This document shows, piece by piece, positions 10,287 to 63,611 of a stretch of DNA of 64,000 bases. This DNA is from a phage, in the NCBI GenBank assembly GCA_037431425.1, contig GCA_037431425.1_4129.1. One strand, written 5' to 3'. Made by a program: the position numbers and the translations under genes. Within the stretch, counting starts at the first letter, position 1; every line of letters starts with the position of its first letter. The notes beneath the pieces are model-generated. The model worked only from the letters and a program-made list of their open reading frames with translations. It ran no database searches and was not told where the DNA came from.

Positions 10287-10504
10287 TGAGAACAGTACTG
10301 AATGTGCATGGTCACAATACGATAGTTTCCAATGAAGAATATAAACTGTTACAAAAGATAAAAGCACGCGGTACTGTTCCAGTTGAAAAAGTAAATGAAT
10401 ATTATCAGGAACTAGCTAATAAAATGGTATCGCGTGGTGTTCTACATAAAATAGAAAATGATGATGGTACTGAATCATACCAAACTGTTAGGAGTAGTAA
10501 ATGA
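10286..10504 (+). CDS. Small hypothetical protein
   Basis: ATG at 10286 overlaps upstream stop (TAATG); track ORF 10262 uses upstream TTG. Confidence 0.45.
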   Translation: MRTVLNVHGHNTIVSNEEYKLLQKIKARGTVPVEKVNEYYQELANKMVSRGVLHKIENDDGTESYQTVRSSK

Positions 10505-11175
10505 ATTACGAATATGATCAACAATCCGTTAATCAGATGGCAGATTTATTAAGTGGTCTTAATGATATTGAAGCTGGTGAAACACATAATGCAGCAGGTG
10601 TTCCCTATAAAGCAAGTGGTGATATTGGTGCAATGACTGCAATTTTAACTTCATTAAATGAAGCTGGAATGGATTACGGTACTGATCCAGAGAAGATTCA
10701 TCCGAACGTTGTACCATACAATGCACCATTCAATGAACACATGAATGGACAACAATCTACCATTCAGCCATATAGTCAACCATCTAAGCCGAAAACTAAT
10801 TGGAGCTTAGTAGAAGAAAAAGTTCAAGGAACTAAATCTACCAAAGTGTATAGTATCAAGTGTAATCATAGTTCACAGATTATTATGAATAATATTATGA
10901 TGTATGAAGCTGCACTTACATTAGTTAATCTTTTGAATGAAGGGCGAATGTTGACAGATGCAAAACTCCTTGGTATAATTAGTTCTGGATTACAATACAC
11001 AAATGTAATTAGTGAGGCATTAAAAGCTGCTCAAAGGCGACAACGTGTTCTTAATGAATCAAAGTATGACGAAGCAAAAGAATTAGATATAATCATTGCA
11101 GAAAAGAAAGCAGAAGCTTATAAATTGAAAGAGCGTGTACTGAACTTTCTTAAAAATGAAGGGTATATTACCTGA
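10501..11175 (+). CDS. Hypothetical protein
   Basis: 224-aa ORF, ATGA overlap with upstream gene. Confidence 0.5.
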   Translation: MNYEYDQQSVNQMADLLSGLNDIEAGETHNAAGVPYKASGDIGAMTAILTSLNEAGMDYGTDPEKIHPNVVPYNAPFNEHMNGQQSTIQPYSQPSKPKTNWSLVEEKVQGTKSTKVYSIKCNHSSQIIMNNIMMYEAALTLVNLLNEGRMLTDAKLLGIISSGLQYTNVISEALKAAQRRQRVLNESKYDEAKELDIIIAEKKAEAYKLKERVLNFLKNEGYIT

Positions 11176-12923
11176 TGTTAGATGAATTGAAGAAATTCTT
11201 AAAAAGCAAAAACAAAAAAACATGGGTTAAGTTGGTAAACAATAATGAATTATATTTTAAATATGTTCGTGATTTGTTCCCAACTAAACCAATGAATGAA
11301 GCATTGTATCTTATTATGAATGACATGGCGTGTGCACCATCTGCTCCATGTGGTTCTGAATGTAAATTTATTAATGGTTCATATGATAAGTATTGTTCTA
11401 AGCCTACAAAACCAAACAAAAATCGTGATAATGGGTTTTGTGTAGTATGTAATGAGCATTGGAAGCAAAACAAACTCAAAAATACTAAACAAAAATGTCT
11501 TGATGTTTATGGTGTCGAACATCATTGGCAAAGAAATGATGTAAAAGATAAAATAAAAAGAACTAATATGAAACGATATGGTGTTGAACACAATTCACAT
11601 GTCGAACATGTTCTTGAAAAAAGAAAGGAAACCTTCATTGAAAGATATGGAGTTGAATCACCGTTATCATCTGTTGAAATTCGTGATAAGATAAAAGCAA
11701 CAAACATTGCAAAATATGGTGTTGAAAATTATGGAAGCACATGTGAATGTATCGAAAAACGAAATAAAACAATGCAAGAATTATATGGTTTTAGTAATGC
11801 ACAACATGTAAAGAAGTTTTCAAATGAATCAAAGATTACTAAATCTAAAATAAGATATGATAAAATTTTATCTATTATTAACCCTTCATATAAAGAACTG
11901 TTTGAATATGATGACTTGATAGATTCAACCAATGAAAGTAAACTTCCGTACTATTGTGAAATACACAAAGGGCTATTTTATAGTAATTATAAATATGGTA
12001 TAGTTTGTGATGTTTGCAACCCGCCTGTATATAGTTCAATACAAAATGAAATAAAAAACTTTGTATCAACATTGACTGAATGTAACATTATCATGAATGA
12101 TAGAAGTAATGGGTATGAGTATGATATATACATCCCTGAACTTCAGATAGCAATAGAAGTCAATGGAATGTATTGGCATAAAAGTGATATGGTTGATAAG
12201 TATTACCATAGAACAAAAACAATAAATTCAATAGAACGTGGGATTAGATTGATACATATCTTTGAAGACGAATGGTACTGTAAACAGGAAATTATTAAAA
12301 ATAGATTAATGAACGTTTTGCAATGTTCTAGAAAGATTTATGCCAGAAAATGTATTGTTAAAAAAATTAACACTAATATTTGTTATGATTTCTTAAACAC
12401 TAATCATATACAAGGATATACTAAATCTGGAATAAACTACGGTTTGTTTTATAATCAAGAATTGATTGCAGTAATGACGTTCGGGAAAAGTCGATATGAT
12501 AAAAAATTTGAATATGAGCTAATACGATACTGCTCACGTGGAACTGTTGTTGGTGGTGCTGGTAAATTATTGTCTGCATTTGAGCGTGAATACAAACCAT
12601 TGTCGTTGATGAGTTACGCTGACTTGAATTGGGGGTCAGGACAGTTATACATATCTCTTAACTTTGAAAATTTAGGATACACAGAACCCAAATATTTTTA
12701 TTATGATCCAAAAACAAAACAGCGTTTTTCTAGACATAAATTGAGAAAACATAAATTGATTGAAATGGGCTACGACTCATCTAAAACTGAAGAAGATATA
12801 TGCTTAGGTGAAATTGGATTGTATAAAATATACGATTCTGGTAATTGCAAATTTGCTAAATATTATTACAACACAAACATTACAGGAGATATTGAAAAAT
12901 GTCCAAATCGTACAAAAAACTAA
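11175..12923 (+). CDS. Large endonuclease-like protein: Cys-rich N-terminus, tandem YGVE repeats, Vsr-like nuclease motif
   Basis: Four to five ~27-aa repeats (YGVEHHWQRNDVKDKIKRT / YGVEHNSHVEHVLEKRKET / YGVESPLSSVEIRDKIKAT / YGVENYG...) then IAIEVNGMYWHKSD resembling the Vsr FxDGxFWH core. Confidence 0.5.
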   Translation: MLDELKKFLKSKNKKTWVKLVNNNELYFKYVRDLFPTKPMNEALYLIMNDMACAPSAPCGSECKFINGSYDKYCSKPTKPNKNRDNGFCVVCNEHWKQNKLKNTKQKCLDVYGVEHHWQRNDVKDKIKRTNMKRYGVEHNSHVEHVLEKRKETFIERYGVESPLSSVEIRDKIKATNIAKYGVENYGSTCECIEKRNKTMQELYGFSNAQHVKKFSNESKITKSKIRYDKILSIINPSYKELFEYDDLIDSTNESKLPYYCEIHKGLFYSNYKYGIVCDVCNPPVYSSIQNEIKNFVSTLTECNIIMNDRSNGYEYDIYIPELQIAIEVNGMYWHKSDMVDKYYHRTKTINSIERGIRLIHIFEDEWYCKQEIIKNRLMNVLQCSRKIYARKCIVKKINTNICYDFLNTNHIQGYTKSGINYGLFYNQELIAVMTFGKSRYDKKFEYELIRYCSRGTVVGGAGKLLSAFEREYKPLSLMSYADLNWGSGQLYISLNFENLGYTEPKYFYYDPKTKQRFSRHKLRKHKLIEMGYDSSKTEEDICLGEIGLYKIYDSGNCKFAKYYYNTNITGDIEKCPNRTKN

Positions 12924-23316: not shown

Positions 23317-26009
<2,693 letters not shown>

Positions 26010-28102: not shown

Positions 28103-31128
<3,026 letters not shown>

Positions 31129-44854: not shown

Positions 44855-45991
44855 ATGGCAGAGAAAGAAATCAATCCAAAAAAATCGTCAACAGTTACTA
44901 AAAACACAAAACGTTCTTCCAAAACTGCGGCGAAGGGTCACACAATTGATGCAAGTGATATTTTCAACCAAACAACAAAGTCACTCCCAGTACTAAAAGA
45001 TGTAAAGGGTAATACCATGTCACTAACAGTTCAAAACATCAACACTGTTGGTACAACTGCTGGTGCGGCGGTTGGTCGTTTGGCTGATGAAATTATGTCT
45101 AAGGTTAACGTAACCGATGACAATACCGAGTTTGGTAAATCAATCACTACAATTCTCACATTGACCCGTGCGGTTGATATTGATAGTCTTCAGGAAGATA
45201 AATCAATTGTTGGTCGCATTAAGAAATTCTTTGTTAATGCCCAACAGAAAGTCGGCGATCAATACAAAAATAGTAAAGAACAAATTGATGAAATTATGAA
45301 AACTCTACAAACTGGCATCAATCGTCAACATGGAGAGTGTGAGTGGCTTGATAAAGCATATAATGAAAACAAAGAATATTTGTTCGAATTACGTGATACA
45401 TTAGTTGGTTTAGAAGAAGTAACTAAAGCACAAGATGCAGTACTGGCAGAAATGCAAGCAAACAAAGACGTGGACTCTTTTGCTATTCAAGAGCAAAAGA
45501 TGATTTGTGAAGCACTTTCTAAGCAAGAAGACAAGATTCGCCGACTTATCATGATGTGTGAACTGAGTGGTCCACGATTGATGAGTATGAAAAAAGTAAA
45601 CTTAAACACTGTTTCTAAGTTTGAAGATTTGAAATCAGTAGTAATTCCTGCATGGAAATCGCAATTGGCTGAACAGCTAATCTCTGAGCGTCAACGTAAG
45701 GATAATGAATTGGGAAATCTAATTGACAATGAAACAAATCGTTTATTAGAGACTAACTCTAAGATGGTTGCAGCTAATATGCTGGATGCTGCAAAGGCAA
45801 ACAATCGTGGTATTGTGGATATTAAAACCTTGCGTAATGTACATAAAACAATGATTGACAGCATCGAAGCTGTTATTGAAGAAGAGAAAAAAGGTAAAAT
45901 GGAACGTGAACGTGCGAAACAAGAAATTGCACAACTTTCACACGAACTCGAAGACACACTTCGTGAAATTGCAGAAAAAGCTAACAAGTAA
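44855..45991 (+). CDS. Coiled-coil protein, hypothetical (a TelA-like resemblance is unverified)
   Basis: 378-aa ORF, largely helical/charged; functional assignment not supportable by eye. Confidence 0.5.
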   Translation: MAEKEINPKKSSTVTKNTKRSSKTAAKGHTIDASDIFNQTTKSLPVLKDVKGNTMSLTVQNINTVGTTAGAAVGRLADEIMSKVNVTDDNTEFGKSITTILTLTRAVDIDSLQEDKSIVGRIKKFFVNAQQKVGDQYKNSKEQIDEIMKTLQTGINRQHGECEWLDKAYNENKEYLFELRDTLVGLEEVTKAQDAVLAEMQANKDVDSFAIQEQKMICEALSKQEDKIRRLIMMCELSGPRLMSMKKVNLNTVSKFEDLKSVVIPAWKSQLAEQLISERQRKDNELGNLIDNETNRLLETNSKMVAANMLDAAKANNRGIVDIKTLRNVHKTMIDSIEAVIEEEKKGKMERERAKQEIAQLSHELEDTLREIAEKANK

Positions 45992-45994
45992 TAG

Positions 45995-46023
45995 TTGACA
46001 CATGGGTGCGTTTTCGATATAAT
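45995..46023 (+). promoter_or_regulatory. Consensus sigma70 promoter (TTGACA-17-TATAAT)
   Basis: TTGACA 45995-46000, 17-nt spacer, TATAAT 46018-46023. Confidence 0.7.
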
Positions 46024-46049
46024 ATTATTATTGAAAACGCACTCTTTTT
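46006..46049 (+). terminator. Hairpin terminator interleaved with the promoter
   Basis: gtgcgttttc (46006-46015) / gaaaacgcac (46033-46042) 10-bp stem with 17-nt loop containing the -10, then tcttttt. Confidence 0.5.
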
Positions 46050-46073
46050 AATATACAGATAAGGAACCAATAC

Positions 46074-46763
46074 ATGAAGCGTAGACATATTAGTGTTGAT
46101 ATTGAGTCTCTTGGCACTCCTGAAAATTCAGGATATGATATTATTATTCCAAATTACGCAGCAGTTGTTGTTCCAAATAAACCTGAAAATGATATCAGGA
46201 ATTTTATATATGTTAAGTTGCCATACCAAGCACAAGTTAACGCTGGCCTGAAATCAGATTCAGGTGCAATGGATTTCTGGATGAATACTTGTCAGAAAGA
46301 ATATCCTAATGCATATGCAGAAGTTGCCAGTACTATGACTCTTCGTGCACCAGAATTGTACGGACCTAATGGTAAATCCAAACAAATCTTTACATCTAAT
46401 AGTATTGTCGATTTCTGGAAAGATATCCGTTATGATATCTATGGTAAAGAAGTTGAACATTCAATTTGGGGAAATGGTTGCAATTTCGACTGTAGTATTT
46501 TACAAGCTAATCACTTAAAACTATTGAATGTTGGTGATTTGTGGAAATATGATGCACCAGAAAATGCACGAACATTAAAACGTTTATTGAATGAAGATGC
46601 TCGTGCTGAAATGGATGAGATTGTGTCAGTGCAGTTAGCTAAATTCGTGAAGTATGCAGAACAATGTGGTATTAATGGTTTGGAATTACATCACCCTCTG
46701 TATGATGCAGCACGTGAAGCTATCCAAATCTCCTACTGTCTCAATAAACTTAAACTGGACTAA
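46074..46763 (+). CDS. DEDDh-type 3'-5' exonuclease (T4 DexA-like), putative
   Basis: ISVDIESLG (Exo I D-x-E), GNGCNFDCSIL (Exo II), HHPLYDAAR (Exo III H-x4-D). Confidence 0.6.
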   Translation: MKRRHISVDIESLGTPENSGYDIIIPNYAAVVVPNKPENDIRNFIYVKLPYQAQVNAGLKSDSGAMDFWMNTCQKEYPNAYAEVASTMTLRAPELYGPNGKSKQIFTSNSIVDFWKDIRYDIYGKEVEHSIWGNGCNFDCSILQANHLKLLNVGDLWKYDAPENARTLKRLLNEDARAEMDEIVSVQLAKFVKYAEQCGINGLELHHPLYDAAREAIQISYCLNKLKLD

Positions 46764-48461: not shown

Positions 48462-49034
48462 ATGTTTTTAAAAAATACTTATGAATTAATTAAAATGCTT
48501 CAAAATATGAATTCTGGTGGTCTATTTCCTTATCATTCCGAGGATAAAACACATCGTTTAGTTTTGAAATTGGATGAAACTGGACGTATTGCATCACTAA
48601 GAACGGTTATTCCCAATATGGAGCAAGTAATCACACAATCAACTCCGAAGTCAGGCACTGCTGTTAATACACCACAAACATATAATCCACAGATATATAC
48701 TATTAGTTCTCCACCTATTACACGAGTTGCCTGTATTGTGAATATAAAAGTATCTAAGGACTATCGTGACTTAATATCAGTTGAATGGTCAGAAATAACA
48801 TCATCATTGGGAGCAAATGGGTTTGTAGTAACAAATACAGGTCTAGTACAAAATGTGAAAGAAGGACAGCAGATCATGAGTGCATTGTATATTAGTAATG
48901 GTTGTGTTATCATCAATGGCAAGTTGTATAGAGATACTGAACCTGATGCATTCACTGAAGATTTGGTTGGTGAAAAAGAATACAGCATTCTGGAAATTAT
49001 GAATTTGAAAAAGGTATATGAAAACGGTGTTTAG
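48462..49034 (+). CDS. Hypothetical protein
   Basis: 190-aa ORF. Confidence 0.5.
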   Translation: MFLKNTYELIKMLQNMNSGGLFPYHSEDKTHRLVLKLDETGRIASLRTVIPNMEQVITQSTPKSGTAVNTPQTYNPQIYTISSPPITRVACIVNIKVSKDYRDLISVEWSEITSSLGANGFVVTNTGLVQNVKEGQQIMSALYISNGCVIINGKLYRDTEPDAFTEDLVGEKEYSILEIMNLKKVYENGV

Positions 49035-49599
49035 ATTTCATCAAGATGATTTACCATTTATCCAAGAGCTTGAGGAACTGGTAATAAGTACTATGGATGA
49101 AATTAGTACTTGGGATATAACCGTTTTTCGAAATGTATATGATAAAGTGGTGAATTTTAAAAATGTTAATATTGAAGTAAAGCATAATAATTTTTACTTA
49201 ACAAAACAATTCATTCTAACTCGTCCAGGACACAAACCTGTTAAGCGTAATTTGTCATTCGGACACATCATTGGTACTGAAAAGGTATATGATGAATGGG
49301 TTGATTCAATCTATTCGTATACAAAAGAACTTATTCCAGATATTGAGAAAAGATATTATCTAAGTATCACATTAGATGAAAACGGAAATCTTAATGCGTA
49401 TTCAATAAATTCTTCATCAAATGTTCCATTACATTCGGTGACGATTGGTGATAAAAAATTGCTAATAAATTCTGAAACATGGTATAATAGAGAAAATTTC
49501 GCAGCAGAAACATTTCAGTACTCTGTATCAGAACCAAAGACACCTTTTGACTTGGTTTTTGTTAACAATATTATTATACGTTATGGTGTAGGAGTGTAA
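49018..49599 (+). CDS. Hypothetical protein; possible divergent member of the FQxS paralogue family
   Basis: C-terminal ENFAAETFQYSVSE weakly matches the family motif. Confidence 0.45.
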   Translation: MKTVFRFHQDDLPFIQELEELVISTMDEISTWDITVFRNVYDKVVNFKNVNIEVKHNNFYLTKQFILTRPGHKPVKRNLSFGHIIGTEKVYDEWVDSIYSYTKELIPDIEKRYYLSITLDENGNLNAYSINSSSNVPLHSVTIGDKKLLINSETWYNRENFAAETFQYSVSEPKTPFDLVFVNNIIIRYGVGV

Positions 49600-51098: not shown

Positions 51099-51517
51099 AG
51101 TACTATCGAATTCGAGTTGGAGTAAGCTCTGGTTTTAGTAATTGGGTATATTATGATTTACCTGATAGCTATACCGTAGAAGATGTAATTAACTTATATT
51201 ATGAAGAAGAGACATGGGTACTCAGTACTGAAACACATAGTGTAGTGTGTGAAGAACTATGTGCAGAAGATTACAAGCACTCTGTCCAAGCAATGAAGTA
51301 TTACAGTAACGATGTGAAGATGTTATCTGAAAACATTTTTCCGGTAAAAGAATGGGCAATTTTACTTGCAAATCCTAACAAACCTGTTAGAATTGGTTAT
51401 CCAAACAATCATATGGTTTATCGAATGAATAATAAACGTGAGCTAAGTTATCAGTATGAATACAGTGCTTCTAAGTTTGGAGTTCTACCACAATTTAAAA
51501 AGGCTTATCCAGTATGA
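51095..51517 (+). CDS. Hypothetical protein
   Basis: 140-aa ORF. Confidence 0.5.
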   Translation: MKYYRIRVGVSSGFSNWVYYDLPDSYTVEDVINLYYEEETWVLSTETHSVVCEELCAEDYKHSVQAMKYYSNDVKMLSENIFPVKEWAILLANPNKPVRIGYPNNHMVYRMNNKRELSYQYEYSASKFGVLPQFKKAYPV

Positions 51518-51849
51518 ACAATGACAACAAAGAATTTATAGTACGTTGTAGTTGTGGCGATAATACTGAACATTGTGTTCACATTGCACAATTTGACTTG
51601 ACTCAAGAAGATGGAGATGGTAAACTTGGTCAATGTTTGGTGAGTATGCGTTTGAATCCTTTCTTAAAATGGCACAAACGTGTATTGGTTGGATTGAAGT
51701 ATATTTTTGGTGTAAACGATTTTCAATATAAAGAAGCAATGATTGATGTTGACATTCTGAAAGAAGTTGTGTTACAATTAGAAGACACCCGACCCGATGA
51801 GGTAAAGAAAGAAGAAAGAGATAAACGTAGTGATGTGAAGGTTTTATGA
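51514..51849 (+). CDS. Hypothetical protein
   Basis: 111-aa ORF, ATGA overlap. Confidence 0.5.
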   Translation: MNNDNKEFIVRCSCGDNTEHCVHIAQFDLTQEDGDGKLGQCLVSMRLNPFLKWHKRVLVGLKYIFGVNDFQYKEAMIDVDILKEVVLQLEDTRPDEVKKEERDKRSDVKVL

Positions 51850-52040
51850 GTACTGAACTTTATGAAAAAAAGTACTGTACAAATTGCTCAACTGAGTATA
51901 CAATACAAGGTATGTTAATTTGCACAGTATGTAAGTCAAAAGAATCAGCTACATTCATAGTTGATGATAGATTTAGTGATTTAAAACAGTTAAAAGCAAA
52001 CCGCAATCTTCGTATTTTTAGCAATCTAAATAAGGAATAA
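51846..52040 (+). CDS. Small zinc-ribbon protein
   Basis: CTNCS...CTVCK motifs. Confidence 0.45.
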   Translation: MSTELYEKKYCTNCSTEYTIQGMLICTVCKSKESATFIVDDRFSDLKQLKANRNLRIFSNLNKE

Positions 52041-52046
52041 CATTTT

Positions 52047-52475
52047 ATGAATATCGAACAAATCATCAGTAATCATTCTTTCTTCGCTCCAGAAACTGGT
52101 CGTGTAATTGAGAATGTCAAAATCGAAGAACTTATGGTGAATGTTAAATATAAAGAGCCAAATGATGAGATTAGCAGCACTTTTTGTGCACTTCGTGCAC
52201 CATTCCGCAATGAAAAAGCAAAAAAACCAGCATATGTTCTTGCAATTGCTTTAGGGTGTGTTGTTAAACTTGCAGTTGATGAAAATATTATTAATATCAA
52301 AGTCGCCCCTACCAATGACGAAGAAAACATTGATTTGAACTTTGATGGTAATCTCGACGAAGATGTATTTTTTCAACAGTCACTTGTTTATGACTTCCGT
52401 ACCGTGACATATTCACATATTAACTTCGTCAATGAAATGGTTGATATTGTAGCCAAATATGAAGAATCTCTATAA
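52047..52475 (+). CDS. FQxS-motif paralogue family member
   Basis: C-terminal DEDVFFQQSLVYDF. Confidence 0.55.
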   Translation: MNIEQIISNHSFFAPETGRVIENVKIEELMVNVKYKEPNDEISSTFCALRAPFRNEKAKKPAYVLAIALGCVVKLAVDENIINIKVAPTNDEENIDLNFDGNLDEDVFFQQSLVYDFRTVTYSHINFVNEMVDIVAKYEESL

Positions 52476-52486
52476 TTAAATCATAA

Positions 52487-52509
52487 AAGCCTCCATGTTG
52501 GAGGCTTTT
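52487..52509 (+). terminator. Rho-independent terminator
   Basis: aagcctcca / tggaggctt stem, tgt loop, T tract. Confidence 0.7.
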
Positions 52510-52532
52510 CTCACATAAGGAAATGAAGAAAT

Positions 52533-53084
52533 ATGATTGAACAAATTAATATTCTCACACAACAAATTACCGACTTTCTTTCAGATAAAGAAGGTTTCAA
52601 AACTGAAGTGAAAATGCACGGAGTTAGTCTTGATGTAATTTCACCAGATGGAAATGTTACAAATTATGATATGTACGAATTGTTTCTTTACACTTTAGCA
52701 GTACGTAAACTAGGAAGTGACATTGAACTAAACATTAACACTGATAGTGATGGAAATAAAATTTTTGCAATCAATACAAGTGCTAAGTATGATGTTAGTG
52801 CAGAAATTAAAAAAATTAACGATAGCTTTGTTGGTTTCACCCATGATTCAATTCAAGGTGTTTTTGTAGGTAAACAAACTTCATCAAGTCAATGCCCATT
52901 TTGTATTATGACTTTATATAAAAATGGTGATTGGATGCGACAAGACTTGGTATATGCTGAAATGTTGTATGCATTTACACATGGTCTAGAAATTGAATTA
53001 GATGATAGTGCTTTTTGCTTTAAGAAAATCCGAAAACTCACAAATGATATTCAAAAGCAACTTAAAGAATTAAATGATAAATAA
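52533..53084 (+). CDS. Hypothetical protein
   Basis: 183-aa ORF; N-terminus (MIEQINILTQQI) resembles family N-termini but the C-terminal motif is not evident. Confidence 0.5.
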   Translation: MIEQINILTQQITDFLSDKEGFKTEVKMHGVSLDVISPDGNVTNYDMYELFLYTLAVRKLGSDIELNINTDSDGNKIFAINTSAKYDVSAEIKKINDSFVGFTHDSIQGVFVGKQTSSSQCPFCIMTLYKNGDWMRQDLVYAEMLYAFTHGLEIELDDSAFCFKKIRKLTNDIQKQLKELNDK

Positions 53085-53195
53085 ATGTACCAGAAGTGGT
53101 TAACATATCATGTTATTTTCCTCCCTTACATAATAATGATGCGTTATTAGATTTTCATTTTATTATTTCTTTTTTGTACAAAATCATATTAGTAC

Positions 53196-53218
53196 TGCCC
53201 CGTATATCGGGGCATTTT
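53196..53218 (+). terminator. Rho-independent terminator
   Basis: tgccccg / cggggca stem, then T4. Confidence 0.6.
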
Positions 53219-53241
53219 ATTATCTAAAATATGGTGATTTT

Positions 53242-53634
53242 ATGAAAAACATTGGCTCTTCTATACAAAAAGACCTTTCATTTTACCTTAATAAATTCAG
53301 AAGTATAAATGGTAATAAATTTAATAGTATCTATCAGTTCACACATAAAGAATATATTACTATTGATCCCTTTTCAAAAAAACTGATGTATGTTAATGAT
53401 AATAATTATAGTGTTAAATTATCATTCGATATTGTGTTAGATAAATTAACATTTACGGAATACACTACCAATAAAACTTCATTTTTACACAAGTATAATA
53501 GAAAGGTATATAATCATATTTCTAGTTATTTAAATGAAGATTATCACTTTCAACAATCTACAATAGAAAAAGTATTATTCAGTACTGAAGAATTAAAAGA
53601 ATTATATTATTGGTATGAGAAATTTACATCTTGA
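53242..53634 (+). CDS. FQxS-motif paralogue family member
   Basis: C-terminal NEDYHFQQSTIEKV. Confidence 0.55.
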   Translation: MKNIGSSIQKDLSFYLNKFRSINGNKFNSIYQFTHKEYITIDPFSKKLMYVNDNNYSVKLSFDIVLDKLTFTEYTTNKTSFLHKYNRKVYNHISSYLNEDYHFQQSTIEKVLFSTEELKELYYWYEKFTS

Positions 53635-53689
53635 CATTATGGTGGTTTCATCTTACAATACAAGATAATGATGCGTTGAGGACAAATTC

Positions 53690-54100
53690 ATGAGTATAGA
53701 TTTACACAATGAACTACAATATTTTTTTGATTTGGATATATCACGTTTGAACAGACATGTCAATCATATATCCAGAACTATATGGTGGTCTGATGAGGCT
53801 GATGAACCAAGGATTCAGATTTGTGATAATTTGTCAGTTTTAAGATTGTATGTTCTTGATACCGAAATGAATATTATGATAACATACGTACCACCCACAA
53901 ACAAACTTCTAATCAACACACTAAACCCAGATACAGTACTGAAAATTTTTGATTTGGATACGATACAGTCAAGCGAAACACTATTCCAACGTTCATTGGT
54001 TGATGATCTAGGGGGTATTTCTTTTGACGATATATTAAAATTGAAGAAGATGTATAATGAATTATTAGAGATTAAAAATACCGTTCTAATGGGGATTTAA
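53690..54100 (+). CDS. FQxS-motif paralogue family member
   Basis: C-terminal SSETLFQRSLVDDL. Confidence 0.55.
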   Translation: MSIDLHNELQYFFDLDISRLNRHVNHISRTIWWSDEADEPRIQICDNLSVLRLYVLDTEMNIMITYVPPTNKLLINTLNPDTVLKIFDLDTIQSSETLFQRSLVDDLGGISFDDILKLKKMYNELLEIKNTVLMGI

Positions 54101-54101
54101 T

Positions 54102-54506
54102 ATGGTAAGTTTATTAGATATTGATAATACTAGTCTGGTTCTGGTGAAAAAAGGATTAATTCCAAATTCTAACAAGATTGATTATGCTGTTATTGAAACA
54201 AATATTGGGAATATCTGGTACGACTCTGAAAGAGACATTGTGTTTAGCTGTGTAGATAGTGATCGTTCTGAGTGCTGTAGGGTTGGGCATGACGGACAAT
54301 TTATTTTCGAATTTCGTTTCTGGAAAGATTCCAGATTTCACCAGGAGCATGTTTCAATTACAAATGTAAATTGTAATGAAGAATCATTCTTCATGGAAAG
54401 TACTATTAATGATTTTGGCTCAGTTACTTTTGAGTACTATAAAAAAGTATATAACTTGTACAGAGAAGTAATTCGAATCATAAGAACCTCTGAGGGTCAA
54501 GATTAA
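54102..54506 (+). CDS. FQxS-motif paralogue family member (variant FFMES)
   Basis: C-terminal NEESFFMESTINDF. Confidence 0.5.
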   Translation: MVSLLDIDNTSLVLVKKGLIPNSNKIDYAVIETNIGNIWYDSERDIVFSCVDSDRSECCRVGHDGQFIFEFRFWKDSRFHQEHVSITNVNCNEESFFMESTINDFGSVTFEYYKKVYNLYREVIRIIRTSEGQD

Positions 54507-54507
54507 T

Positions 54508-54885
54508 ATGACTACTACCATATATAATATTTTAGGTAACTTGAATAAAAACATAGATAATGATTTTGTTATAGTTGAAAACACTAAAAATATAATTCAT
54601 CTACCATTGGGTACACCAGATAGGTTAATTTTTAACATATACGCTAACACACTGACATACATACACGATGGTATGGTTATCGTTGTGCTTGATATTAAAG
54701 AAAATACAATACGATATGCATATGACTTTAACGTTTATTGGTCAAGAACTCATTGTATTGATATTGAGGAAGATGAACTTTTTCAATTATCGTTAATTGA
54801 GAAAAATGTAATAGGAGTTACCGAGATTGGTATTGTTAAAAAAGCTTTGGAATATGCAAATAAAAAAATAAATGGCGAACTATGA
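54508..54885 (+). CDS. FQxS-motif paralogue family member
   Basis: C-terminal EEDELFQLSLIEKN. Confidence 0.55.
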   Translation: MTTTIYNILGNLNKNIDNDFVIVENTKNIIHLPLGTPDRLIFNIYANTLTYIHDGMVIVVLDIKENTIRYAYDFNVYWSRTHCIDIEEDELFQLSLIEKNVIGVTEIGIVKKALEYANKKINGEL

Positions 54886-55346
54886 TGAACATTGAGGAAA
54901 TAAAAAATCATTTTGAAATTGCATTGTCTTGTGATTTTGATAGTTGTTATGTTACTGAACCAGAAGATATAATTAGAATTTCCACATCGTTTTCAGAAGA
55001 ATACAATATACTCATTGAGAAATCATATGACAGAACCGAACTCTCATTTTACAATAAGGATTTACGAACAACATCATTTATATTATTATATAACACAACA
55101 TCGGATATAATAGAGATTATAACAAGTAAAACAGGTAAAACAAGTAAAGATGTACATTATGAGACTATACCAAATGTAAGTTATTGTTCAACAGAAGAAG
55201 GATACTTCCAGGAATCACTTATTAAAAATTTATCAGTTAGCTATTCTGATTTAAGCATTATAGTCAATTATGTGGAAAAGTTAAATGATTTCGTTCTATC
55301 GATGTTTGATATCACTGAGCAAAAACCAAAGGAAATCAAATGTTAA
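54882..55346 (+). CDS. FQxS-motif paralogue family member
   Basis: C-terminal TEEGYFQESLIKNL; ATGA overlap. Confidence 0.55.
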   Translation: MMNIEEIKNHFEIALSCDFDSCYVTEPEDIIRISTSFSEEYNILIEKSYDRTELSFYNKDLRTTSFILLYNTTSDIIEIITSKTGKTSKDVHYETIPNVSYCSTEEGYFQESLIKNLSVSYSDLSIIVNYVEKLNDFVLSMFDITEQKPKEIKC

Positions 55347-55795
55347 ATCCTGGACATTTTTTTCATTTACTGGACATTACACCTATACCCGATTTAATCA
55401 GCGAGACTAATCATTATCGTGATATTGGAATTGTATCAATGGAATATGATTCACCTGACTTTAAATGTTACGTAACATACGATCAGGTGGCTTATGAGTC
55501 AGAGCCTGCGATTAAAAAACCATCATATATTTTTGTGTTCATATATAATGATTATAGTGGTGATGTACTGAATGATGTTCATATTGACACATTTGAAATA
55601 TGTGGTAATATTATATCAGATGATTCAGCATCCACATTTGATTTGGAATTAAACAGTACTGAAGAGTCACTTTTTCAGTTGAGTACTATATGTGATACTA
55701 TATTAACTCTAGATGACATTGAGAAATTTAAAGAACAGCTTGACGCAGTTCGTGAGATGTTCTATAATCATTATCCAGAAGTAGAGTTCAATTAA
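55340..55795 (+). CDS. FQxS-motif paralogue family member
   Basis: C-terminal TEESLFQLSTICDT. Confidence 0.55.
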   Translation: MLNPGHFFHLLDITPIPDLISETNHYRDIGIVSMEYDSPDFKCYVTYDQVAYESEPAIKKPSYIFVFIYNDYSGDVLNDVHIDTFEICGNIISDDSASTFDLELNSTEESLFQLSTICDTILTLDDIEKFKEQLDAVREMFYNHYPEVEFN

Positions 55796-55809
55796 CTAAA
55801 GGTAATAAG

Positions 55810-56070
55810 ATGACTAAAGTAGTTCGTAAACGCCACATGATGAATATGGATGAATTTCGTACATTTGACAAATATCGTACTATGTTTCGTATGCTGTCAC
55901 AGGGTCGCCCAATCGTCATTGTAACAGAGAATTACATGTCACCTGAGATTATGTTTGGTAATTACGAAAAGGTCTTCATGTTGTACGTGAAGCGTGGATT
56001 GCTTACAATCAAGACATTAGCTGAAGCAACTGATGATGATATGGATGGAGATAATACCTTTACCATGTGA
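55810..56070 (+). CDS. Hypothetical protein
   Basis: 86-aa ORF. Confidence 0.45.
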   Translation: MTKVVRKRHMMNMDEFRTFDKYRTMFRMLSQGRPIVIVTENYMSPEIMFGNYEKVFMLYVKRGLLTIKTLAEATDDDMDGDNTFTM

Positions 56071-56148
56071 GGAAATATATGTCTGAAAAACCAAAAGAAC
56101 CTTTAGATCGTGATGATGATTTTTATGACGAACGATATGGAGATGATA

Positions 56149-56400
56149 ATGAGTGAACATAGTGCGGTGCTTAAAAAGATTTTAAAGGAAATTGATGGTG
56201 AGTTTAATGTCACAGAAGAAGAATATCAGCATTGGAAGAAAGATTTCGAACAACTAACCGAGTATGATAAAGTGTTCAATATGATTGGCGTAATTAGCCA
56301 GTACTTACTTGGTGGAGGACGTGCAAGTGCTTCAATTCTGGCATCTGCAATCATCTGTACATCACGATGGTGTGATGAAAAAAGTTTGGAAGATTTCTAA
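56149..56400 (+). CDS. Hypothetical protein
   Basis: ATG 56149 with GGAG upstream. Confidence 0.45.
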   Translation: MSEHSAVLKKILKEIDGEFNVTEEEYQHWKKDFEQLTEYDKVFNMIGVISQYLLGGGRASASILASAIICTSRWCDEKSLEDF

Positions 56401-56415
56401 ATAAGATGCTATAAT
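56386..56415 (+). promoter_or_regulatory. Sigma70-type promoter with extended -10 (TGcTATAAT)
   Basis: TATAAT 56410-56415 with TG 56407-56408; TTGGAA about 18 nt upstream. Confidence 0.5.
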
Positions 56416-56452
56416 ATATCAGAGTTCCTTAACAATATAAAAAGGATTTTAT

Positions 56453-58333
56453 ATGAAACCTATCCGAGTACTATCTCTTTTTAATGGGATGAGTGTAGGA
56501 TACATGGCATTAAAAGATGCTGGTATCCCTGTTGAAAAATATTATTCATCCGAAATTGACAAATTTGCTATAGCTGAATCCCAAGCTAACTTCCCCGATA
56601 TCATCCAATTGGGTGATGTAACTAGATGGAGAGAATGGGATATTGAATGGGATAAGATAGATCTACTGATGGGTGGTTTTCCATGCTTCCCAGCAGGAAC
56701 TATGATAATGACAAATAAAGGTCATAAAGATATAAAAGATATAAAAATTGGTGATATGGTTCTTACACACACTGGACAGTACCAAAAAGTATTGAGTACT
56801 GGTGTTAAAAAGGCTCCCACTCGTATTATTACAGGTCAAGGTCACCTTCCAATTGAATGTACCGATAATCATCCATTTTGGAGTAGGGAACGTCTAGCCA
56901 ATAAATGGAATAATCAACACCGAAGATATGATTCTGTGTTTTCTGAACCGCAATGGGTAAATGCTATAGATCTTACTAAACAAAGTTATATTTGTAATGT
57001 TAAAAATATTACACATAATACAGTAAGTGATAAAGATGAAAAATATTGGTATTTTGTTGGTCGTTTTATGGGTGATGGATGTGCTAGTGTATCTAATAAC
57101 AAATACAGTATTACTATTGTAGATTCATTAGATAAAGTTGATGAATTGAAAAAATGTTTTGATGATTTTGGATACAAATACACATTAGCTATTAAAGATA
57201 ATCATGTAAGATGTGATATATATAGCAAAAAGCTTTATGATGAATTAATATGTATTGGGCATAAATCACAAAACAAATGTTTACCACCTGAAATATTCAA
57301 TGAAACTATCAATAACAAAGAAGCATTTATTAAAGGATACATGGATGCAGATGGTTGTGAGGATAAACACAATAAAAAATACAAATTTACCACCACAAGT
57401 TATAAAATAGTTCTTGGTATGCAACAGTTAATCTTAGATACTTATCAACGTCATTGTACTATTAGTCAAACTGTTCCAAAAACAAAAAAATATATAAAAA
57501 ATAAGTTGGTTAATCAGCTTCCGTATTGGAATGTTCATTTTAGCTATAATAAAATTAAAAGAGATGATGTAATATATGATGAAATTTATATATGGAATCG
57601 TGGTGTAAAAAGTAATGTACCAACCGGAGAATGGAAAACCGTTTACAATATTGAAGTTGCAGTAGATAACACATATACAGCGAACAATATTGTAGTTCAT
57701 AACTGCCAAGCGTGGTCAGTTGCAGGTAAACAGGGTGGAATAAATGATCCTCGTGGTATGTTATTCCATACAATGGTTGATATTTACCAGCACATAAAAA
57801 GTCTCAATCCAGACTTGAAAGTACTGTTCGAGAATGTTAAAATGAAAGAAGATTTCAAGCAATACATTAATAGTGTTCTTGAGATGACACCAGTACTGAT
57901 AAATTCCCAGCATTATACGCCTCACTTCAGGCAGAGATATTACTGGTACAGTACTGATAAACTTTTTATACCACCTGCATTATCAAATGCACCTAAACTT
58001 CAAGATATTATTGAAGATGGTTGGTACACTGACAGAACCGCTTCGTACTGTATAGATGCTAACTATTTTAAGGGTGGGGATTGTAACCAGTACTTTAATA
58101 AATCAAGAAGACAAATTGTTTTCAAAGAACCTGATATCGATAGGGATTTCCTTCTTGAACATGGTAAGCGAAATGTGGACTATCGTCATTTAACAGTGCA
58201 AGAGTGTTGCATGTTGCAAGGAATTGATGTAAACTACTTCAAAGTTAGTAGTTCAACACAAGCATACAAAATGCTTGGGAATGGATGGACTATGCCAGTT
58301 ATATCACACTTACTACGAGATATATTCTTTTGA
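56453..58333 (+). CDS. DNA (cytosine-5)-methyltransferase interrupted by an intein
   Basis: Motif I LSLFNGMSVG; motif IV split as GGFP | intein | CQAWSVAGK; motif VI FENV; GNGWTMPV near C-terminus; host protein about 286 aa without the intein. Confidence 0.8.
   Translation: MKPIRVLSLFNGMSVGYMALKDAGIPVEKYYSSEIDKFAIAESQANFPDIIQLGDVTRWREWDIEWDKIDLLMGGFPCFPAGTMIMTNKGHKDIKDIKIGDMVLTHTGQYQKVLSTGVKKAPTRIITGQGHLPIECTDNHPFWSRERLANKWNNQHRRYDSVFSEPQWVNAIDLTKQSYICNVKNITHNTVSDKDEKYWYFVGRFMGDGCASVSNNKYSITIVDSLDKVDELKKCFDDFGYKYTLAIKDNHVRCDIYSKKLYDELICIGHKSQNKCLPPEIFNETINNKEAFIKGYMDADGCEDKHNKKYKFTTTSYKIVLGMQQLILDTYQRHCTISQTVPKTKKYIKNKLVNQLPYWNVHFSYNKIKRDDVIYDEIYIWNRGVKSNVPTGEWKTVYNIEVAVDNTYTANNIVVHNCQAWSVAGKQGGINDPRGMLFHTMVDIYQHIKSLNPDLKVLFENVKMKEDFKQYINSVLEMTPVLINSQHYTPHFRQRYYWYSTDKLFIPPALSNAPKLQDIIEDGWYTDRTASYCIDANYFKGGDCNQYFNKSRRQIVFKEPDIDRDFLLEHGKRNVDYRHLTVQECCMLQGIDVNYFKVSSSTQAYKMLGNGWTMPVISHLLRDIFF
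56684..57703 (+). mobile_element. Intein with LAGLIDADG homing endonuclease domain (340 aa)
   Basis: Starts CFPAGTMIMT (block A), ends VVHN followed by extein Cys; two LAGLIDADG-like motifs FVGRFMGDGC and IKGYMDADGC. Confidence 0.8.
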
Positions 58334-58815
58334 ACATAAACAAACACCAAACTTATATAAAACGTGCAGAAAGTTTCAAACGGCTGGCTGTAAAATCTGA
58401 ATTAGAATTTAATTTGTATTATCCTAATATTGGTGATGAGGTATTTTATTGCTCACATTCAAAGAATGGAACTTTACTTAAATCGGGTAAAGGAACTATT
58501 GTTGATATGACCGCAAATTTCAGAGGTAAACTTAATGTAATGTACAAAGTGCAAGATTCAAGTACTGAGTGTATTCATGAAGTGATGCATAACATACCTG
58601 CATATCCAAAAGATTTTGTTCAGCTAATATCTCGAAGGGAGAAACCTATGTTCTATTGTGGTTACGACAAATTAACCAAACAAATTATTCCTAATACTAT
58701 GGGAAAATTTAAAAGTGATGTAAAATCTGAATTAGAAAAGAAATTTGGTACATCATGGGAAACTGAAAACGAGTTTATCGAAATTCGTTTAATTGAAGTT
58801 ACTATTATTGATTAA
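58285..58815 (+). CDS. Hypothetical protein
   Basis: 176-aa ORF overlapping the methyltransferase 3' end; start uncertain. Confidence 0.4.
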   Translation: MDYASYITLTTRYILLNINKHQTYIKRAESFKRLAVKSELEFNLYYPNIGDEVFYCSHSKNGTLLKSGKGTIVDMTANFRGKLNVMYKVQDSSTECIHEVMHNIPAYPKDFVQLISRREKPMFYCGYDKLTKQIIPNTMGKFKSDVKSELEKKFGTSWETENEFIEIRLIEVTIID

Positions 58816-58821
58816 TTATAA

Positions 58822-58845
58822 ATCCACGCAATGCGTGGATTTTTT
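58822..58845 (+). terminator. Rho-independent terminator
   Basis: atccacgc / gcgtggat palindrome, then T5-6. Confidence 0.7.
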
Positions 58846-58858
58846 CATAGGTGTATAT

Positions 58859-59374
58859 ATGTCAATTCATTATGTTAAAATTATTAACAATATTCTTGAT
58901 TCTTGGGAAGATGTCATTATTGGCAAAAAGAAGCCTTTTCCAGTTCATGCACTAACTGGAAGACTACAATTCAGAATGTCAAACAAAACTGAAACGTTTA
59001 ATAATCATGATATTTGTATTACATTAAAAACACCTGTTAGTATTGTAATTAAAAAAAATAAAGATGATGAATTGTCATTATCTATTGGTCGTGATAAAAT
59101 TATTTTAAGTAATTTGTCTGAAGAAGAATTCTTTCAAAGAAGTACTATCATCGACATGAAAGATTTCACATATGAATCATTAGTAGAACTCAATACACGC
59201 TTTGATGATATTCAGGAACGATTGCGACCAATCCTTCGTAGAGAAGAAGAAGCCTGGATTGAAAGTATGAATAAGATGCAAGAAATGTTAAAAGAAAATA
59301 TTAACAATCTGGGTAAAGCCACAATGGAAATTGGTAAAACTTTAAAACTCAACTTTTCAAAGGATCGTAAATGA
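58859..59374 (+). CDS. FQxS-motif paralogue family member
   Basis: ATG 58859 with AGGTG upstream; SEEEFFQRSTIIDM. Confidence 0.55.
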   Translation: MSIHYVKIINNILDSWEDVIIGKKKPFPVHALTGRLQFRMSNKTETFNNHDICITLKTPVSIVIKKNKDDELSLSIGRDKIILSNLSEEEFFQRSTIIDMKDFTYESLVELNTRFDDIQERLRPILRREEEAWIESMNKMQEMLKENINNLGKATMEIGKTLKLNFSKDRK

Positions 59375-59823
59375 AAATCGATGAACTGATTTATATTTTA
59401 GGTAACTTGCACAAAATATTGTTACATCGTAACGAGATGAATAAACTAGGATATAATATAACTAATATAAATGAAACATCATTTAAATATAATTCAATCA
59501 CTGGTGTAAATTATAATATTGTGTATTGTCATGAAACTGACCCAGACTGCTATCAACTTACGTTATACTTTTATCCAACAAACCCTGCCATTGTTCAAGA
59601 CATATCATCAATATCACTTGACCCAGATGGTGAAATGAGTATAGAATATAGCTATGATTCTAAAAAAGAATGTTACGTTGAAGATATGAAAAATATGTTT
59701 AACGATGCATATGTGTTCCAGCTAAGTACTGTACATGATGTTGGAAGTACTAATGGGCAATTTTGGAATACATGCTATTATCATATGATTGGAATTTGTA
59801 AATTACTAAAAGGCGATGATTAA
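59371..59823 (+). CDS. FQxS-motif paralogue family member
   Basis: C-terminal DAYVFQLSTVHDV. Confidence 0.5.
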   Translation: MKIDELIYILGNLHKILLHRNEMNKLGYNITNINETSFKYNSITGVNYNIVYCHETDPDCYQLTLYFYPTNPAIVQDISSISLDPDGEMSIEYSYDSKKECYVEDMKNMFNDAYVFQLSTVHDVGSTNGQFWNTCYYHMIGICKLLKGDD

Positions 59824-60206
59824 TGAAATACAGCATTGAAGTACATTACACTACTGGTGATACTGAAAATCAATATAACATAGTTAAGACCGTTGATATT
59901 CAATGGGATACTAAAGAGGAAGCAGTTGCTGCTTTACAGTGCTTAAAAGAGCATTGGGTGTTTTATATGAAGCAAGATAATTGCTATACAAAAGAACACG
60001 AAACTATCGTTAAAAATGCTAAACAAAAAGAGTGGTTTGACCCAATTTCACCAGAATATTCATTTTTGGTTAAAGTTGGAGGCGTGACAGTTCCCTTACG
60101 AACACCGTGGAACGGCTACTTTGAAACTCTTCATAATGCACGAGTTGTCGCAGTTGACAATCCTGAACAAATCGATTTTGATTCATTGGACTGGAAAAAA
60201 TTATGA
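59823..60206 (+). CDS. Hypothetical protein
   Basis: 127-aa ORF, translationally coupled, no family motif. Confidence 0.5.
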   Translation: MKYSIEVHYTTGDTENQYNIVKTVDIQWDTKEEAVAALQCLKEHWVFYMKQDNCYTKEHETIVKNAKQKEWFDPISPEYSFLVKVGGVTVPLRTPWNGYFETLHNARVVAVDNPEQIDFDSLDWKKL

Positions 60207-60646
60207 CAGTACTGCACAGATTGAAGAAGGTTAAGCATCCAGTTGTATATGAGGACTGGAAACGACAAAAGTTACTGGGTGATTTTTATTACCCAAAATC
60301 TAAAGTTCTTGCGAATTCAAGATGTACATATATCAAACATAACGATAAAGATACAGTATTTGTTGAAATGGGGTTCAATCCATCAAATACAATGTTCAGT
60401 ACTAACCAAACATTTTACAAATTTCATATCAAAAAAGATGTATTTTCTATTAAAATTATAAAACATTTAGTTGAAGATCTGGTATACAGTGAAGAAAGAG
60501 TTCCTTTATCATTAGTGGATATTCCTTATAATAATTTAGAGGAAATGTACTTCCAACAGTTGACAGTACAAGAAAACTTTGGTATGATAGGACTTCAAGA
60601 GTTAGAGATGATTAAGCAAATTCGTGATATCTACTTTAAGGAGTAA
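60203..60646 (+). CDS. FQxS-motif paralogue family member (variant FQQLT)
   Basis: C-terminal LEEMYFQQLTVQEN. Confidence 0.5.
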   Translation: MTVLHRLKKVKHPVVYEDWKRQKLLGDFYYPKSKVLANSRCTYIKHNDKDTVFVEMGFNPSNTMFSTNQTFYKFHIKKDVFSIKIIKHLVEDLVYSEERVPLSLVDIPYNNLEEMYFQQLTVQENFGMIGLQELEMIKQIRDIYFKE

Positions 60647-61176
60647 CTATGCCAGTACGTAACAGTACTTCACGCTTTACGCTTCAACAGAAAGCAGATC
60701 TTTTGAATATGGCAAATAAAGATTCTAATTATTACTATCTAGTACTCGGTGGTTCAGTTGAAAAGATTGACCTACGTGAGTGTGTGAAATAACAAAGGGG
60801 ATAAAATGAGCCTACGTGAATCATGGGAACAATTTAAAGAAGAGATTGGTTATCGTGGTGTTAAGATTGAACAAATCAATCGAACCGAAAGTATCAAAGC
60901 AAGTTCTAATGGTACTACATATGATCGTTATGATGAAAAGTATGGTTTACATTCTAAATCAAAGGATACTGAGTAATGGTGTATATTAATATTTTTACTG
61001 GTATTATGCGTAAGTTTGTTAATGGTATTGGATATGTATCCAATGATAATGGTAGTACATGGGTAAAAAATAATACGCCCGAATCTTTAGTGAAAAATCT
61101 TCCGTATTATAAAGCTTGACCCCTGAAAATGGAGTATGTATAATACTCCTATATTAATTAAATGAGGATATACGAA

Positions 61177-62766: not shown

Positions 62767-63053
62767 AAATTTTAGAAGTTTTACTTGAAAAAGATGCATC
62801 TGGTACTCTTTATGTTGGTAATGATTTCAGTCCTGATCCAATTGATATGATGCAGCGTATTCAATCACTGACCCAATCAATTTCAGTTAAACAACCTTTC
62901 CTAAAAGAATTGGAAATTCATTGCGATAAAGACATGGAGCAGCATGATAATGTTATTTCTGATATCAAAAATCTGTTGACAAAGAACGGATATGTGGAGT
63001 ATAATCCTCCTATCGTAATCGTTATCCCTGGCTTCATGAGAGGAACATTGTAA
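62763..63053 (+). CDS. Hypothetical protein
   Basis: 96-aa ORF, ATGA overlap. Confidence 0.5.
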   Translation: MKILEVLLEKDASGTLYVGNDFSPDPIDMMQRIQSLTQSISVKQPFLKELEIHCDKDMEQHDNVISDIKNLLTKNGYVEYNPPIVIVIPGFMRGTL

Positions 63054-63322: not shown

Positions 63323-63611
63323 ACATGAAGTATTAGTATTAGATAATAAATTCTATGTACCAAATAATGATAGTACTGAAACATATTATCTAATTAATAA
63401 AATTATGACTGAAACTAATACTTGTTGTCGTCAAATCCCAGGAAAATATGAGTTCAGTCAGTCTATTGGCTATTATCGTTATAATCCATTGGAATCATTT
63501 ACAATTGACGTGTTGAAAGTTATTGACATTCTTGTACAGAATGGGTATAATGAAAAACATGTAAATAACTCAGAATTACCAGTTTCAAAAATCGTTATTT
63601 CTAATAATTAG
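63315..63611 (+). CDS. Hypothetical protein
   Basis: ATG 63315 just before upstream stop; track ORF 63252 trimmed. Confidence 0.45.
   Translation: MNKHEVLVLDNKFYVPNNDSTETYYLINKIMTETNTCCRQIPGKYEFSQSIGYYRYNPLESFTIDVLKVIDILVQNGYNEKHVNNSELPVSKIVISNN

Follow-up and report, generated by a model that had tools for sequence, protein, structure and literature searches.

The DNA analysed here is a stretch of 64,000 nucleotides from a phage contig (GenBank assembly GCA_037431425.1, contig GCA_037431425.1_4129.1), which we call the window. This study concerns a cluster of small genes at 58859-60646 (cluster 2), which is separated by a DNA methyltransferase gene from a larger cluster of similar genes at 52047-55795 (cluster 1). 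Both clusters consist mainly of members of a protein family that we define here as the FQxS family, that is, 125-170-aa proteins with the motif [ED][ED]-x-Phi-F-[QM]-x-[SL]-[TL]-[IV] near the C-terminus. From 46 to 64 kb of the window every gene lies on the + strand, and the genes are tightly packed. The region 51800-61000 showed 98.2% identity to Escherichia phage ph0011 (Asteriusvirus) and 80-90% identity to 121Q, PBECO4, phAPEC6, and about 30 other Asteriusvirus jumbo phages.

The three open reading frames (ORFs) of cluster 2 that had been pointed out in an earlier note on this DNA, together with the peptides quoted for them, are all present. The ORF 58859-59374 encodes 171 aa (isoelectric point, pI, 7.8) with the motif EEEFFQRSTI at nt 59120-59149, followed by an unusually long helical tail of 74 aa; it has no orthologue in JNE01 or RaK2 and is a lineage-specific copy. 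The ORF 59371-59823 (150 aa, pI 4.7; DAYVFQLSTV at nt 59704-59733) had the lowest profile score among the members, and its positional orthologues were found in JNE01 (40% over 149 aa) and RaK2 (ORF196). The ORF 60203-60646 (147 aa, pI 8.5; EEMYFQQLTV at nt 60539-60568) contains L in place of the near-invariant S of the motif and is orthologous to genes of JNE01 (39%) and RaK2 (ORF198, 28% over 154 aa). Between the last two lies 59823-60206, a gene for 127 aa that is conserved in 121Q, JNE01, and RaK2 and is not a member of the family. The genes had been described as coupled through overlapping stop and start codons, and such junctions were indeed found (ATGA at 59371-59374, TAATG at 59823, and ATGA at 60203-60206). 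However, the chain passes through the non-member 59823-60206, which is translationally coupled on both sides.

Directly upstream of cluster 2 there is a terminator-like hairpin with a T-run on the + strand (58820-58846; 10-bp stem, -13.3 kcal/mol, z -3.7), which separates the gene 58285-58815 from the cluster. Its stem is kept in 121Q and fEgEco12, its loop is variable, and it was missed by a consensus terminator scan. Since a longer ORF beginning with TTG at 58793 would cross this conserved hairpin and T-run, the ATG at 58859 is the correct start of the first gene of cluster 2. In addition, the ORF 58285-58815, read from its ATG, shares 49 nt with the 3' end of the methyltransferase gene, and the annotated start of its 121Q orthologue gives an overlap of 4 nt; the start of this gene is uncertain.

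Cluster 1 includes seven members. The ORF 52047-52475 (142 aa, pI 4.5; EDVFFQQSLV) is the best-conserved copy, with 46% identity to RaK2 ORF184, and 53242-53634 (130 aa, pI 8.9; EDYHFQQSTI) has no orthologue in JNE01 or RaK2. A near-consensus sigma70-type promoter (53631-53659) lies directly upstream of 53690-54100 (136 aa; SETLFQRSLV), which is followed by 54102-54506 (134 aa; EESFFMESTI), 54508-54885 (125 aa; EDELFQLSLI), and 54882-55346 (154 aa; EEGYFQESLI). The last of these is the copy furthest from its 121Q counterpart, with 46% aa identity and a synonymous divergence (dS) of 1.39. The cluster ends with 55340-55795 (151 aa; EESLFQLSTI), whose pI is 4.05 and whose net charge is -23. Meanwhile, the gene 52533-53084 (183 aa) is a companion from outside the family, and it occupies array position 2 in 121Q, JNE01, RaK2, and the locus of a metagenomic relative (L009) as well. 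The family is mostly acidic, with a median pI of 4.7. Seven of the ten window copies have a pI of 4.05-4.9, and the copies beginning at 53242, 58859, and 60203 are neutral to basic.

Among 551 stop-to-stop ORFs of at least 40 aa in the window, the pattern F[QM]x[SL][TLV][IVL] was found in ten real + strand ORFs, seven at 52047-55795 and three at 58859-60646, and elsewhere in just two junk ORFs, which are 41 and 45 aa long. Nine of the ten copies have the motif 22-40 residues from the C-terminus, and 58859-59374 has it 74 residues away. Because pairwise BLAST similarity among the copies is weak, centred on the motif, and confined to 20-50 residues, homology was tested with profiles. In leave-one-out profiles each omitted member came immediately behind the nine training sequences and scored above all 541 non-members (E 3e-8 to 0.02). 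Furthermore, the suggestion that cluster 2 is homologous to cluster 1 was borne out: a profile made from the seven cluster-1 proteins alone ranked the three cluster-2 ORFs first among the sequences outside the training set (E 8.6e-7, 1e-5, and 9e-3), and the next-best ORF had an E value of 0.13. When a profile was iterated on the window and five related loci (1278 ORFs in total), it converged on 56 members, of which exactly 10 are in the window. Thus, the three cluster-2 ORFs do belong to a single protein family, whose members have diverged strongly.

The profile detected no member in positions 1-52000 of the window. The ORF 49018-49599 (+ strand, 193 aa), which had been listed as a possible weak member, does contain the motif; however, only 21 motif columns could be aligned with the family, at an hhalign probability of 12%, and we regard it as a candidate very remote relative. 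Judged by its sequence, this ORF may be an extremely remote relative or may carry a convergent motif. Its orthologues (L003 7780-8343 and L004 7212-7811) keep E..F....FQxS about 30 residues from the C-terminus. The two non-members embedded in the clusters, 52533-53084 and 59823-60206, were also considered as degenerate members and were rejected, each having an hhalign probability of 0.4% against the family.

The structure of 54102-54506 was predicted with AlphaFold2 from a 75-sequence alignment, with a mean predicted local distance difference test (pLDDT) score of 93.8 and a predicted template modelling (pTM) score of 0.85. The model comprises a short N-terminal helix, seven antiparallel strands forming a beta-meander, a helix at residues 93-102, and a long C-terminal helix at residues 110-130. 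In this model the motif EESFFMESTI corresponds to the helix 93-102. The first of the two C-terminal helices, with the turn that leads on to the second, is predicted to be built from a block that is almost invariant, [ST]-E-E-x-Phi-F-Q-x-S-[TL]-[IV]-x-D-Phi. The conserved columns are concentrated at residues 92-105 and 109-113 (numbering of 54102-54506). They include T/S92, E93 (93%), E94, Phi96, F97 (100%), Q98 (88%, otherwise M), S100 (97%), T/L101, I/V102, D104, and F105, together with T-Phi-E-D-Phi where the last helix starts. In the hypervariable sheet, the strands keep alternating hydrophobic positions alone. For the cluster-2 protein 59371-59823 the model had a pLDDT of 63; the two C-terminal helices were reproduced at pLDDT 75-81, and the sheet was poorly resolved.

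In structure searches with Foldseek, no significant solved relative was found in the PDB, and the best match was Mam33 (E 0.047, TM-score 0.25). The structural matches in BFVD were solely family members of RaK2, GAP32, and UB, the RaK2 one at a TM-score of 0.87. Searches of Pfam and of the PADLOC defence-system profiles gave nothing at E<=1 (apart from noise in Pfam), and those of NCBIfam gave noise only. The PDB sequences searched with the family profile likewise returned only noise, namely nanobodies and one tag-like 'EENYFQ'. In PHROGs there is one separate family of 'unknown function' per orthologue group (>10 in all), with weak cross-hits between them. The longest members were inspected for domain fusions, and none to a known domain was seen. 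Word-indexed searches for homologues contributed little further.

The earlier count of at least ten copies was correct as a lower bound: there are exactly ten in the window, and in ph0011 there are 10-12 more past the window end. In the 50 kb beyond that point we found 10 further members at E<1e-3 and 2 borderline ones, all with the motif, and the first of them is about 1.9 kb downstream. The ten members lie, in the coordinates of locus L007 (ph0011 294000-343999) and by profile, at 2762-3268, 4033-4572, 6369-6740, 10047-10469, 10438-10827, 11906-12307, 12255-12716, 25022-25537, 30091-30684, and 45588-46241, with tRNAs, HNH endonucleases, and a gene for a sigma factor lying between them. The family is scattered in many sub-clusters over about 65 kb, and its true size is at least 20 per genome. 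In addition, runs of consecutive genes for about 110-125 aa at L007 33753-35718 and 42771-45551, some of them annotated as Phi92_gp233/234-like, look like other tandem families; these runs may be the array, with over 30 genes called 'very similar', reported for 121Q (PMC5646251).

To estimate the distribution of the family, 1.84 billion cluster representatives were scanned exhaustively with HMMER. Finally, we obtained 68 proteins at E<1e-3, nearly all of 110-220 aa, and 65 of the 68 carry the motif, with the consensus [ST]EEx[FYL]FQxS[TL][IVL]xD[FLM]G. The relatives found by tblastn were only jumbo phages of Escherichia, Klebsiella, Salmonella, and Erwinia, and the profile finds members also in Cronobacter phage GAP32 and Serratia phage BF. 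The family is a lineage-specific expansion, so far seen only in RaK2-like Enterobacterales jumbo phages and metagenomic contigs. Several family proteins are recorded at NCBI as Escherichia coli, on contigs of about 350 kb. These are apparently whole jumbo-phage genomes within bacterial assemblies, via a carrier state or contamination.

With the exception of 53242-53634 and 58859-59374, the window copies match over their full length the same-position gene in JNE01 (28-68%) and usually in RaK2 (27-46%), whereas their alignment with their own paralogues is limited to 20-50 residues around the motif at <40% identity. Therefore, the duplications predate the split of Asteriusvirus and Alcyoneusvirus. 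Meanwhile, the number of members immediately upstream and downstream of the methyltransferase gene varied. For instance, there were 4+0 in GAP32 (no downstream member within 14 kb), 5+2 in RaK2, 6+2 in JNE01, and 10+7 in the metagenomic relative L009. By profile there were 7+3 in the window, 121Q, ph0011, fEgEco12, and TH47, and by annotation 7+3 in phAPEC6, whose last copy is unannotated. The arrangement is thus identical within the species group (7+3, five Asteriusvirus genomes) but not between genera, and the proposed comparison of copy number in related genomes gave a range of 4+0 to 10+7 across the relatives. The copies are old tandem duplications, and they show a birth-and-death pattern of gain, loss, and deletion between lineages.

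The gene between the two clusters, which the earlier note had recognised as an intein-bearing methyltransferase, encodes a C5-cytosine DNA methyltransferase (Dcm; 56453-58333, + strand), with matches to PF00145 (9.6e-29), Hint_2 (3.7e-8), and LAGLIDADG_3 (3.4e-10). The intein is a Hint/LAGLIDADG element of 340 aa (aa 78-417, nt 56684-57703) inserted inside the catalytic P-C-Q motif (GGFP / C...HN / CQAWS). An intein-free gene for 286 aa occupies the same position in 121Q, fEgEco12, and phAPEC6, and most other relatives are intein-free too. Homologues of the methyltransferase are found within or beside the arrays in RaK2, GAP32, the metagenomic locus, and JNE01, so that, with 121Q, the gene occurs at this position in five of the five relatives in which the locus was read. 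It is accompanied by conserved non-family genes (55810-56070, 56110-56400, and 58285-58815). The earlier note had asked whether the methyltransferase locus is absent in some related genomes. By tblastn, none of the RaK2-like records that were found lacked a homologue of the gene; they comprised Asteriusvirus, RaK2/K64-1, GAP32, CBB, and the Erwinia and Xanthomonas relatives. The intein was present in only five records and in two alleles, one in UE-S1 and ph0011 (99.5% identity) and one in TH47, A4, and JNE01 (about 70%). Since the gene occurs in all these records and the intein in only five, the methyltransferase is ancestral at this position, and the intein, the one demonstrably mobile insertion here, is alone in being recent. 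Furthermore, GAP32 has four upstream members and no downstream member; thus the downstream cluster looks like later growth or differential loss, not like a severed half. We also observed a gene for a PTH2-type peptidyl-tRNA hydrolase inside the array in RaK2, GAP32, and the metagenomic relative (L003 12410-12823; L009 6128-6538; L010 10878-11306), and this gene has no counterpart at the equivalent position in the window.

In comparison with 121Q, the ratio of nonsynonymous to synonymous divergence (dN/dS) of the family members was 0.08-0.32, which indicates purifying selection and functional genes. The median dN was 0.148 for the family and 0.063 for the neighbours (p=0.049), that is, the family changes about twice as fast, and its dN/dS was not significantly higher than that of the neighbours (p=0.09). 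The dS values spanned 0.06 to 1.39. In addition, identity to 121Q in 300-nt bins is mosaic, with 64-65% at 54.9-55.5 kb (dS about 1.4) and 96-98% at 55.8-56.4 kb (dS 0.06-0.18), and the identity to fEgEco12 along the locus follows a pattern unlike that of 121Q. At the level of sequence, this mosaic indicates exchange or recombination among related Asteriusviruses. Among the paralogues themselves there was no sign of recent duplication or gene conversion, as only the motif is shared. In Salmonella phage SD-15_S21, the orthologue of 58859-59374 (L012 6310-6795) has a 30-nt in-frame deletion that removes exactly LSEEEFFQRS and is flanked by AGTA microhomology, and a 220-nt deletion destroys the orthologue of 60203-60646 (L012 7627-7849). 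These deletions may reflect adaptation to Salmonella, relaxed selection, or assembly error.

To understand when and where these proteins might act, promoters, the published virion proteome, and the gene neighbourhood were considered. Near-consensus sigma70 promoters (at least 11 of 12 positions) were found 19 times on the + strand of the whole window and once on the - strand, against an expectation of 2.9 +/- 1.8 per strand. Eight of the 19 are within 50.9-63.6 kb, for example at 53631-53659, 55740-55768, 62976-63005, and 63523-63551. In the related phage PA5oct, which depends for transcription on the RNA polymerase of its host, small uncharacterised genes arranged in blocks make up the early class (PMC7318152). 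In the relatives of the window, the surrounding block contains genes for peptidyl-tRNA hydrolase, ADP-ribosylglycohydrolase, tRNAs, and homing endonucleases. Meanwhile, the 62 proteins of the phAPEC6 virion proteome (PMC7247149, Table 1) include none of gp117c-gp134c, and the family orthologues gp120c, 121c, 127c-132c, and 134c are all missing from that list.

Because of this absence from the virion proteome, the sigma70 promoters, the parallel with PA5oct, and the surrounding accessory genes, we propose that the family consists of early host-interaction proteins. The genes would be transcribed early by host RNA polymerase, within a long co-directional block of small accessory genes, and the proteins would work within the infected cell as a set of binders that share one scaffold. 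Their variable sheet might provide different target specificities against host proteins, for takeover or counter-defence, and the conserved helical block might be a structural keystone or a shared docking site. The SD-15_S21 deletions would fit an accessory, dispensable nature of the genes. Taken as a whole, an old, diverged RaK2-like family of early host-interaction proteins next to a long-standing Dcm gene is the explanation that we favour, and we consider it rather probable. Within it, host manipulation as the function of the family is a guess. Several points weigh against this explanation. The host-interaction role draws on genomic context and analogy, and the early timing is read from the promoter consensus. 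The gene-wide dN/dS is well below 1 and gives no direct arms-race signature, and low-abundance packaged proteins could escape a virion proteome. Furthermore, the role of the conserved block might be structural and nothing else (helix N-cap plus core phenylalanines), and in the predicted models the fold identity for cluster 2 covers the C-terminal helices only.

Other explanations were weighed against the same evidence. A short motif arising by chance or convergence in unrelated small ORFs might explain why pairwise BLAST finds no more than 20-50 residues in common and why PHROGs places each copy in its own family. However, the leave-one-out and cluster-1-only profiles retrieve the members, the distance of the motif from the C-terminus is alike in nine of ten copies, and length, strand, and clustering are common to them. 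With the motif in nearly all database representatives, the cross-hits between PHROGs, and the close BFVD match to a RaK2 member added to this, such a coincidence is hardly credible. The earlier note had suggested that the array was split by an insertion or that the region is a recombination hotspot, which we took to mean insertion of the methyltransferase locus into a once contiguous tandem array or an active hotspot that shuffles the copies. In agreement with this, Dcm is flanked by both clusters, copy number differs between genera, the comparison with 121Q gives a mosaic of identity and dS values that breaks sharply near 55.8 kb, and the intein records the visit of a mobile element to the gene. 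Nevertheless, Dcm and its conserved non-family neighbours share one location in 121Q, JNE01, RaK2, GAP32, and the metagenomic relative, GAP32 lacks downstream members, and the family forms so many sub-clusters that the bracketing of one gene is not special. A recent splitting of the array by insertion is thus largely refuted. Something of the hotspot idea survives in the jump of identity from 64 to 98% between adjacent bins and in the SD-15_S21 deletions. However, the order is conserved, each copy has a positional orthologue, and the paralogues have diverged too far for recent duplication or conversion. On the whole, we consider that a split array or a hotspot is an unlikely account of the locus.

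The alternatives to host interaction concern the place where the proteins act. They could be packaged internal or ejected virion proteins, in which the conserved block is a capsid-targeting signal or a protease-processing signal like the E-x-x-Y-x-Q/S site of tobacco etch virus (TEV) and 3C proteases. The motif E-E-x-[YFL]-F-Q-x-S superficially resembles ExxYxQ(S/G), the internal proteins of T4 carry a short conserved targeting peptide on variable bodies and offer an analogy, and the orthologue of the neighbouring gene 51514-51849 is annotated as a virion structural protein. However, no family orthologue is among the 62 virion proteins of phAPEC6, and this absence led us to reject the virion idea, which we regard as very improbable. 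A TEV-like cleavage site was rejected as well: the position that follows Q varies (Q 41%, L 19%, E 15%), the conserved S stands two positions on instead of directly after Q, and the block is confidently predicted as a helix packed in the fold, not as an exposed extended linker. No 3C-like protease was identified in this analysis either. We also considered Q-x-S-[LT]-[IV]-x-D-F as a PIP-box or beta-clamp-like segment and set this aside for the similar reason that the segment is a packed helix and not a terminal peptide. Somewhat less doubtful, but still not likely, is that the family serves the phage itself and has no host factors as targets. The proteins would then be, for example, assembly or folding chaperones, subunits of a hetero-oligomeric ring that the conserved helices hold together, or proteins for superinfection exclusion or immunity. 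An interface for oligomerisation common to all members could well be provided by a conserved helix on a variable body, and all copies are under purifying selection. Nevertheless, the fold matches are below significance, the arrays have no conserved partner of known function, and copies are lost, truncated, or motif-deleted in viable lineages, which argues against essential stoichiometric subunits.

Beyond the early host-interaction proteins that we favour, a more specific form can be imagined, in which about 20 paralogues are a repertoire of binders. Their hypervariable sheets would each bind a different host protein, such as a defence factor, and the TEExFFQxS helix would dock all of them to one hub, perhaps a phage effector or a protease, chaperone, or clamp of the host. 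This is a speculative idea to which we give little probability. If true, the repertoire would amount to a library of adaptors with one mechanism for inactivating or removing many targets.

Lineage-specific expansions of paralogues have been noted before in jumbo phages. The genome paper of RaK2 states that about 10% of its proteins are paralogues and says nothing more on them (PMC3622015), and the paper on CBB lists 22 paralogous ORFs (PMC5259590). The present family resembles such expansions in its tandem, co-oriented small genes, in genome expansion, and in the phage group concerned. However, the FQxS copies share <40% identity over the motif alone and are not 'very similar', and their duplications are ancient, not recent; the >30-gene array of 121Q is probably a different family. 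Those papers neither delimited nor named the FQxS family, in PHROGs it is divided among more than ten families, and our literature search found no description of the family or its motif.

Hyperplastic arrays of small early or accessory genes, including the internal-protein loci, are also known in T4-like phages. These arrays and the FQxS family have in common variable bodies with one short conserved block, rapid turnover, sigma70-type promoters, and tight translational coupling. However, the T4-like internal proteins have a cleaved N-terminal peptide, whereas the FQxS block is predicted as an internal folded helix near the C-terminus of proteins that were not found in virions. Among cellular systems we compared p32/gC1qBP/Mam33 (PF02330), to which the family has no sequence or profile match; the FQxS proteins are about 60 residues shorter, and the structural similarity of Mam33 to the FQxS model is insignificant. 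The Polo-box domains (PLK1/2/4, Cdc5, ZYG-1, and KKT3) were also among the systems compared, and the structure searches as a whole gave no significant solved relative.

Most genes in the RaK2/121Q group have no known function, and the proportion is 83% in phAPEC6 (PMC7247149). In each genome, over 20 'hypothetical' genes that existing resources distribute among more than ten seemingly unrelated families are now one family, previously undescribed, of which giant phages of the RaK2/121Q type carry at least 20 diverged copies. The methyltransferase as an array-splitting insertion has been removed as a false lead. For this family there are now a diagnostic motif and a confident structural model, and its copies are seen to be old, retained, quickly changing, and variable in number; its profile is an annotation aid for relatives and a handle on phage-host experiments.

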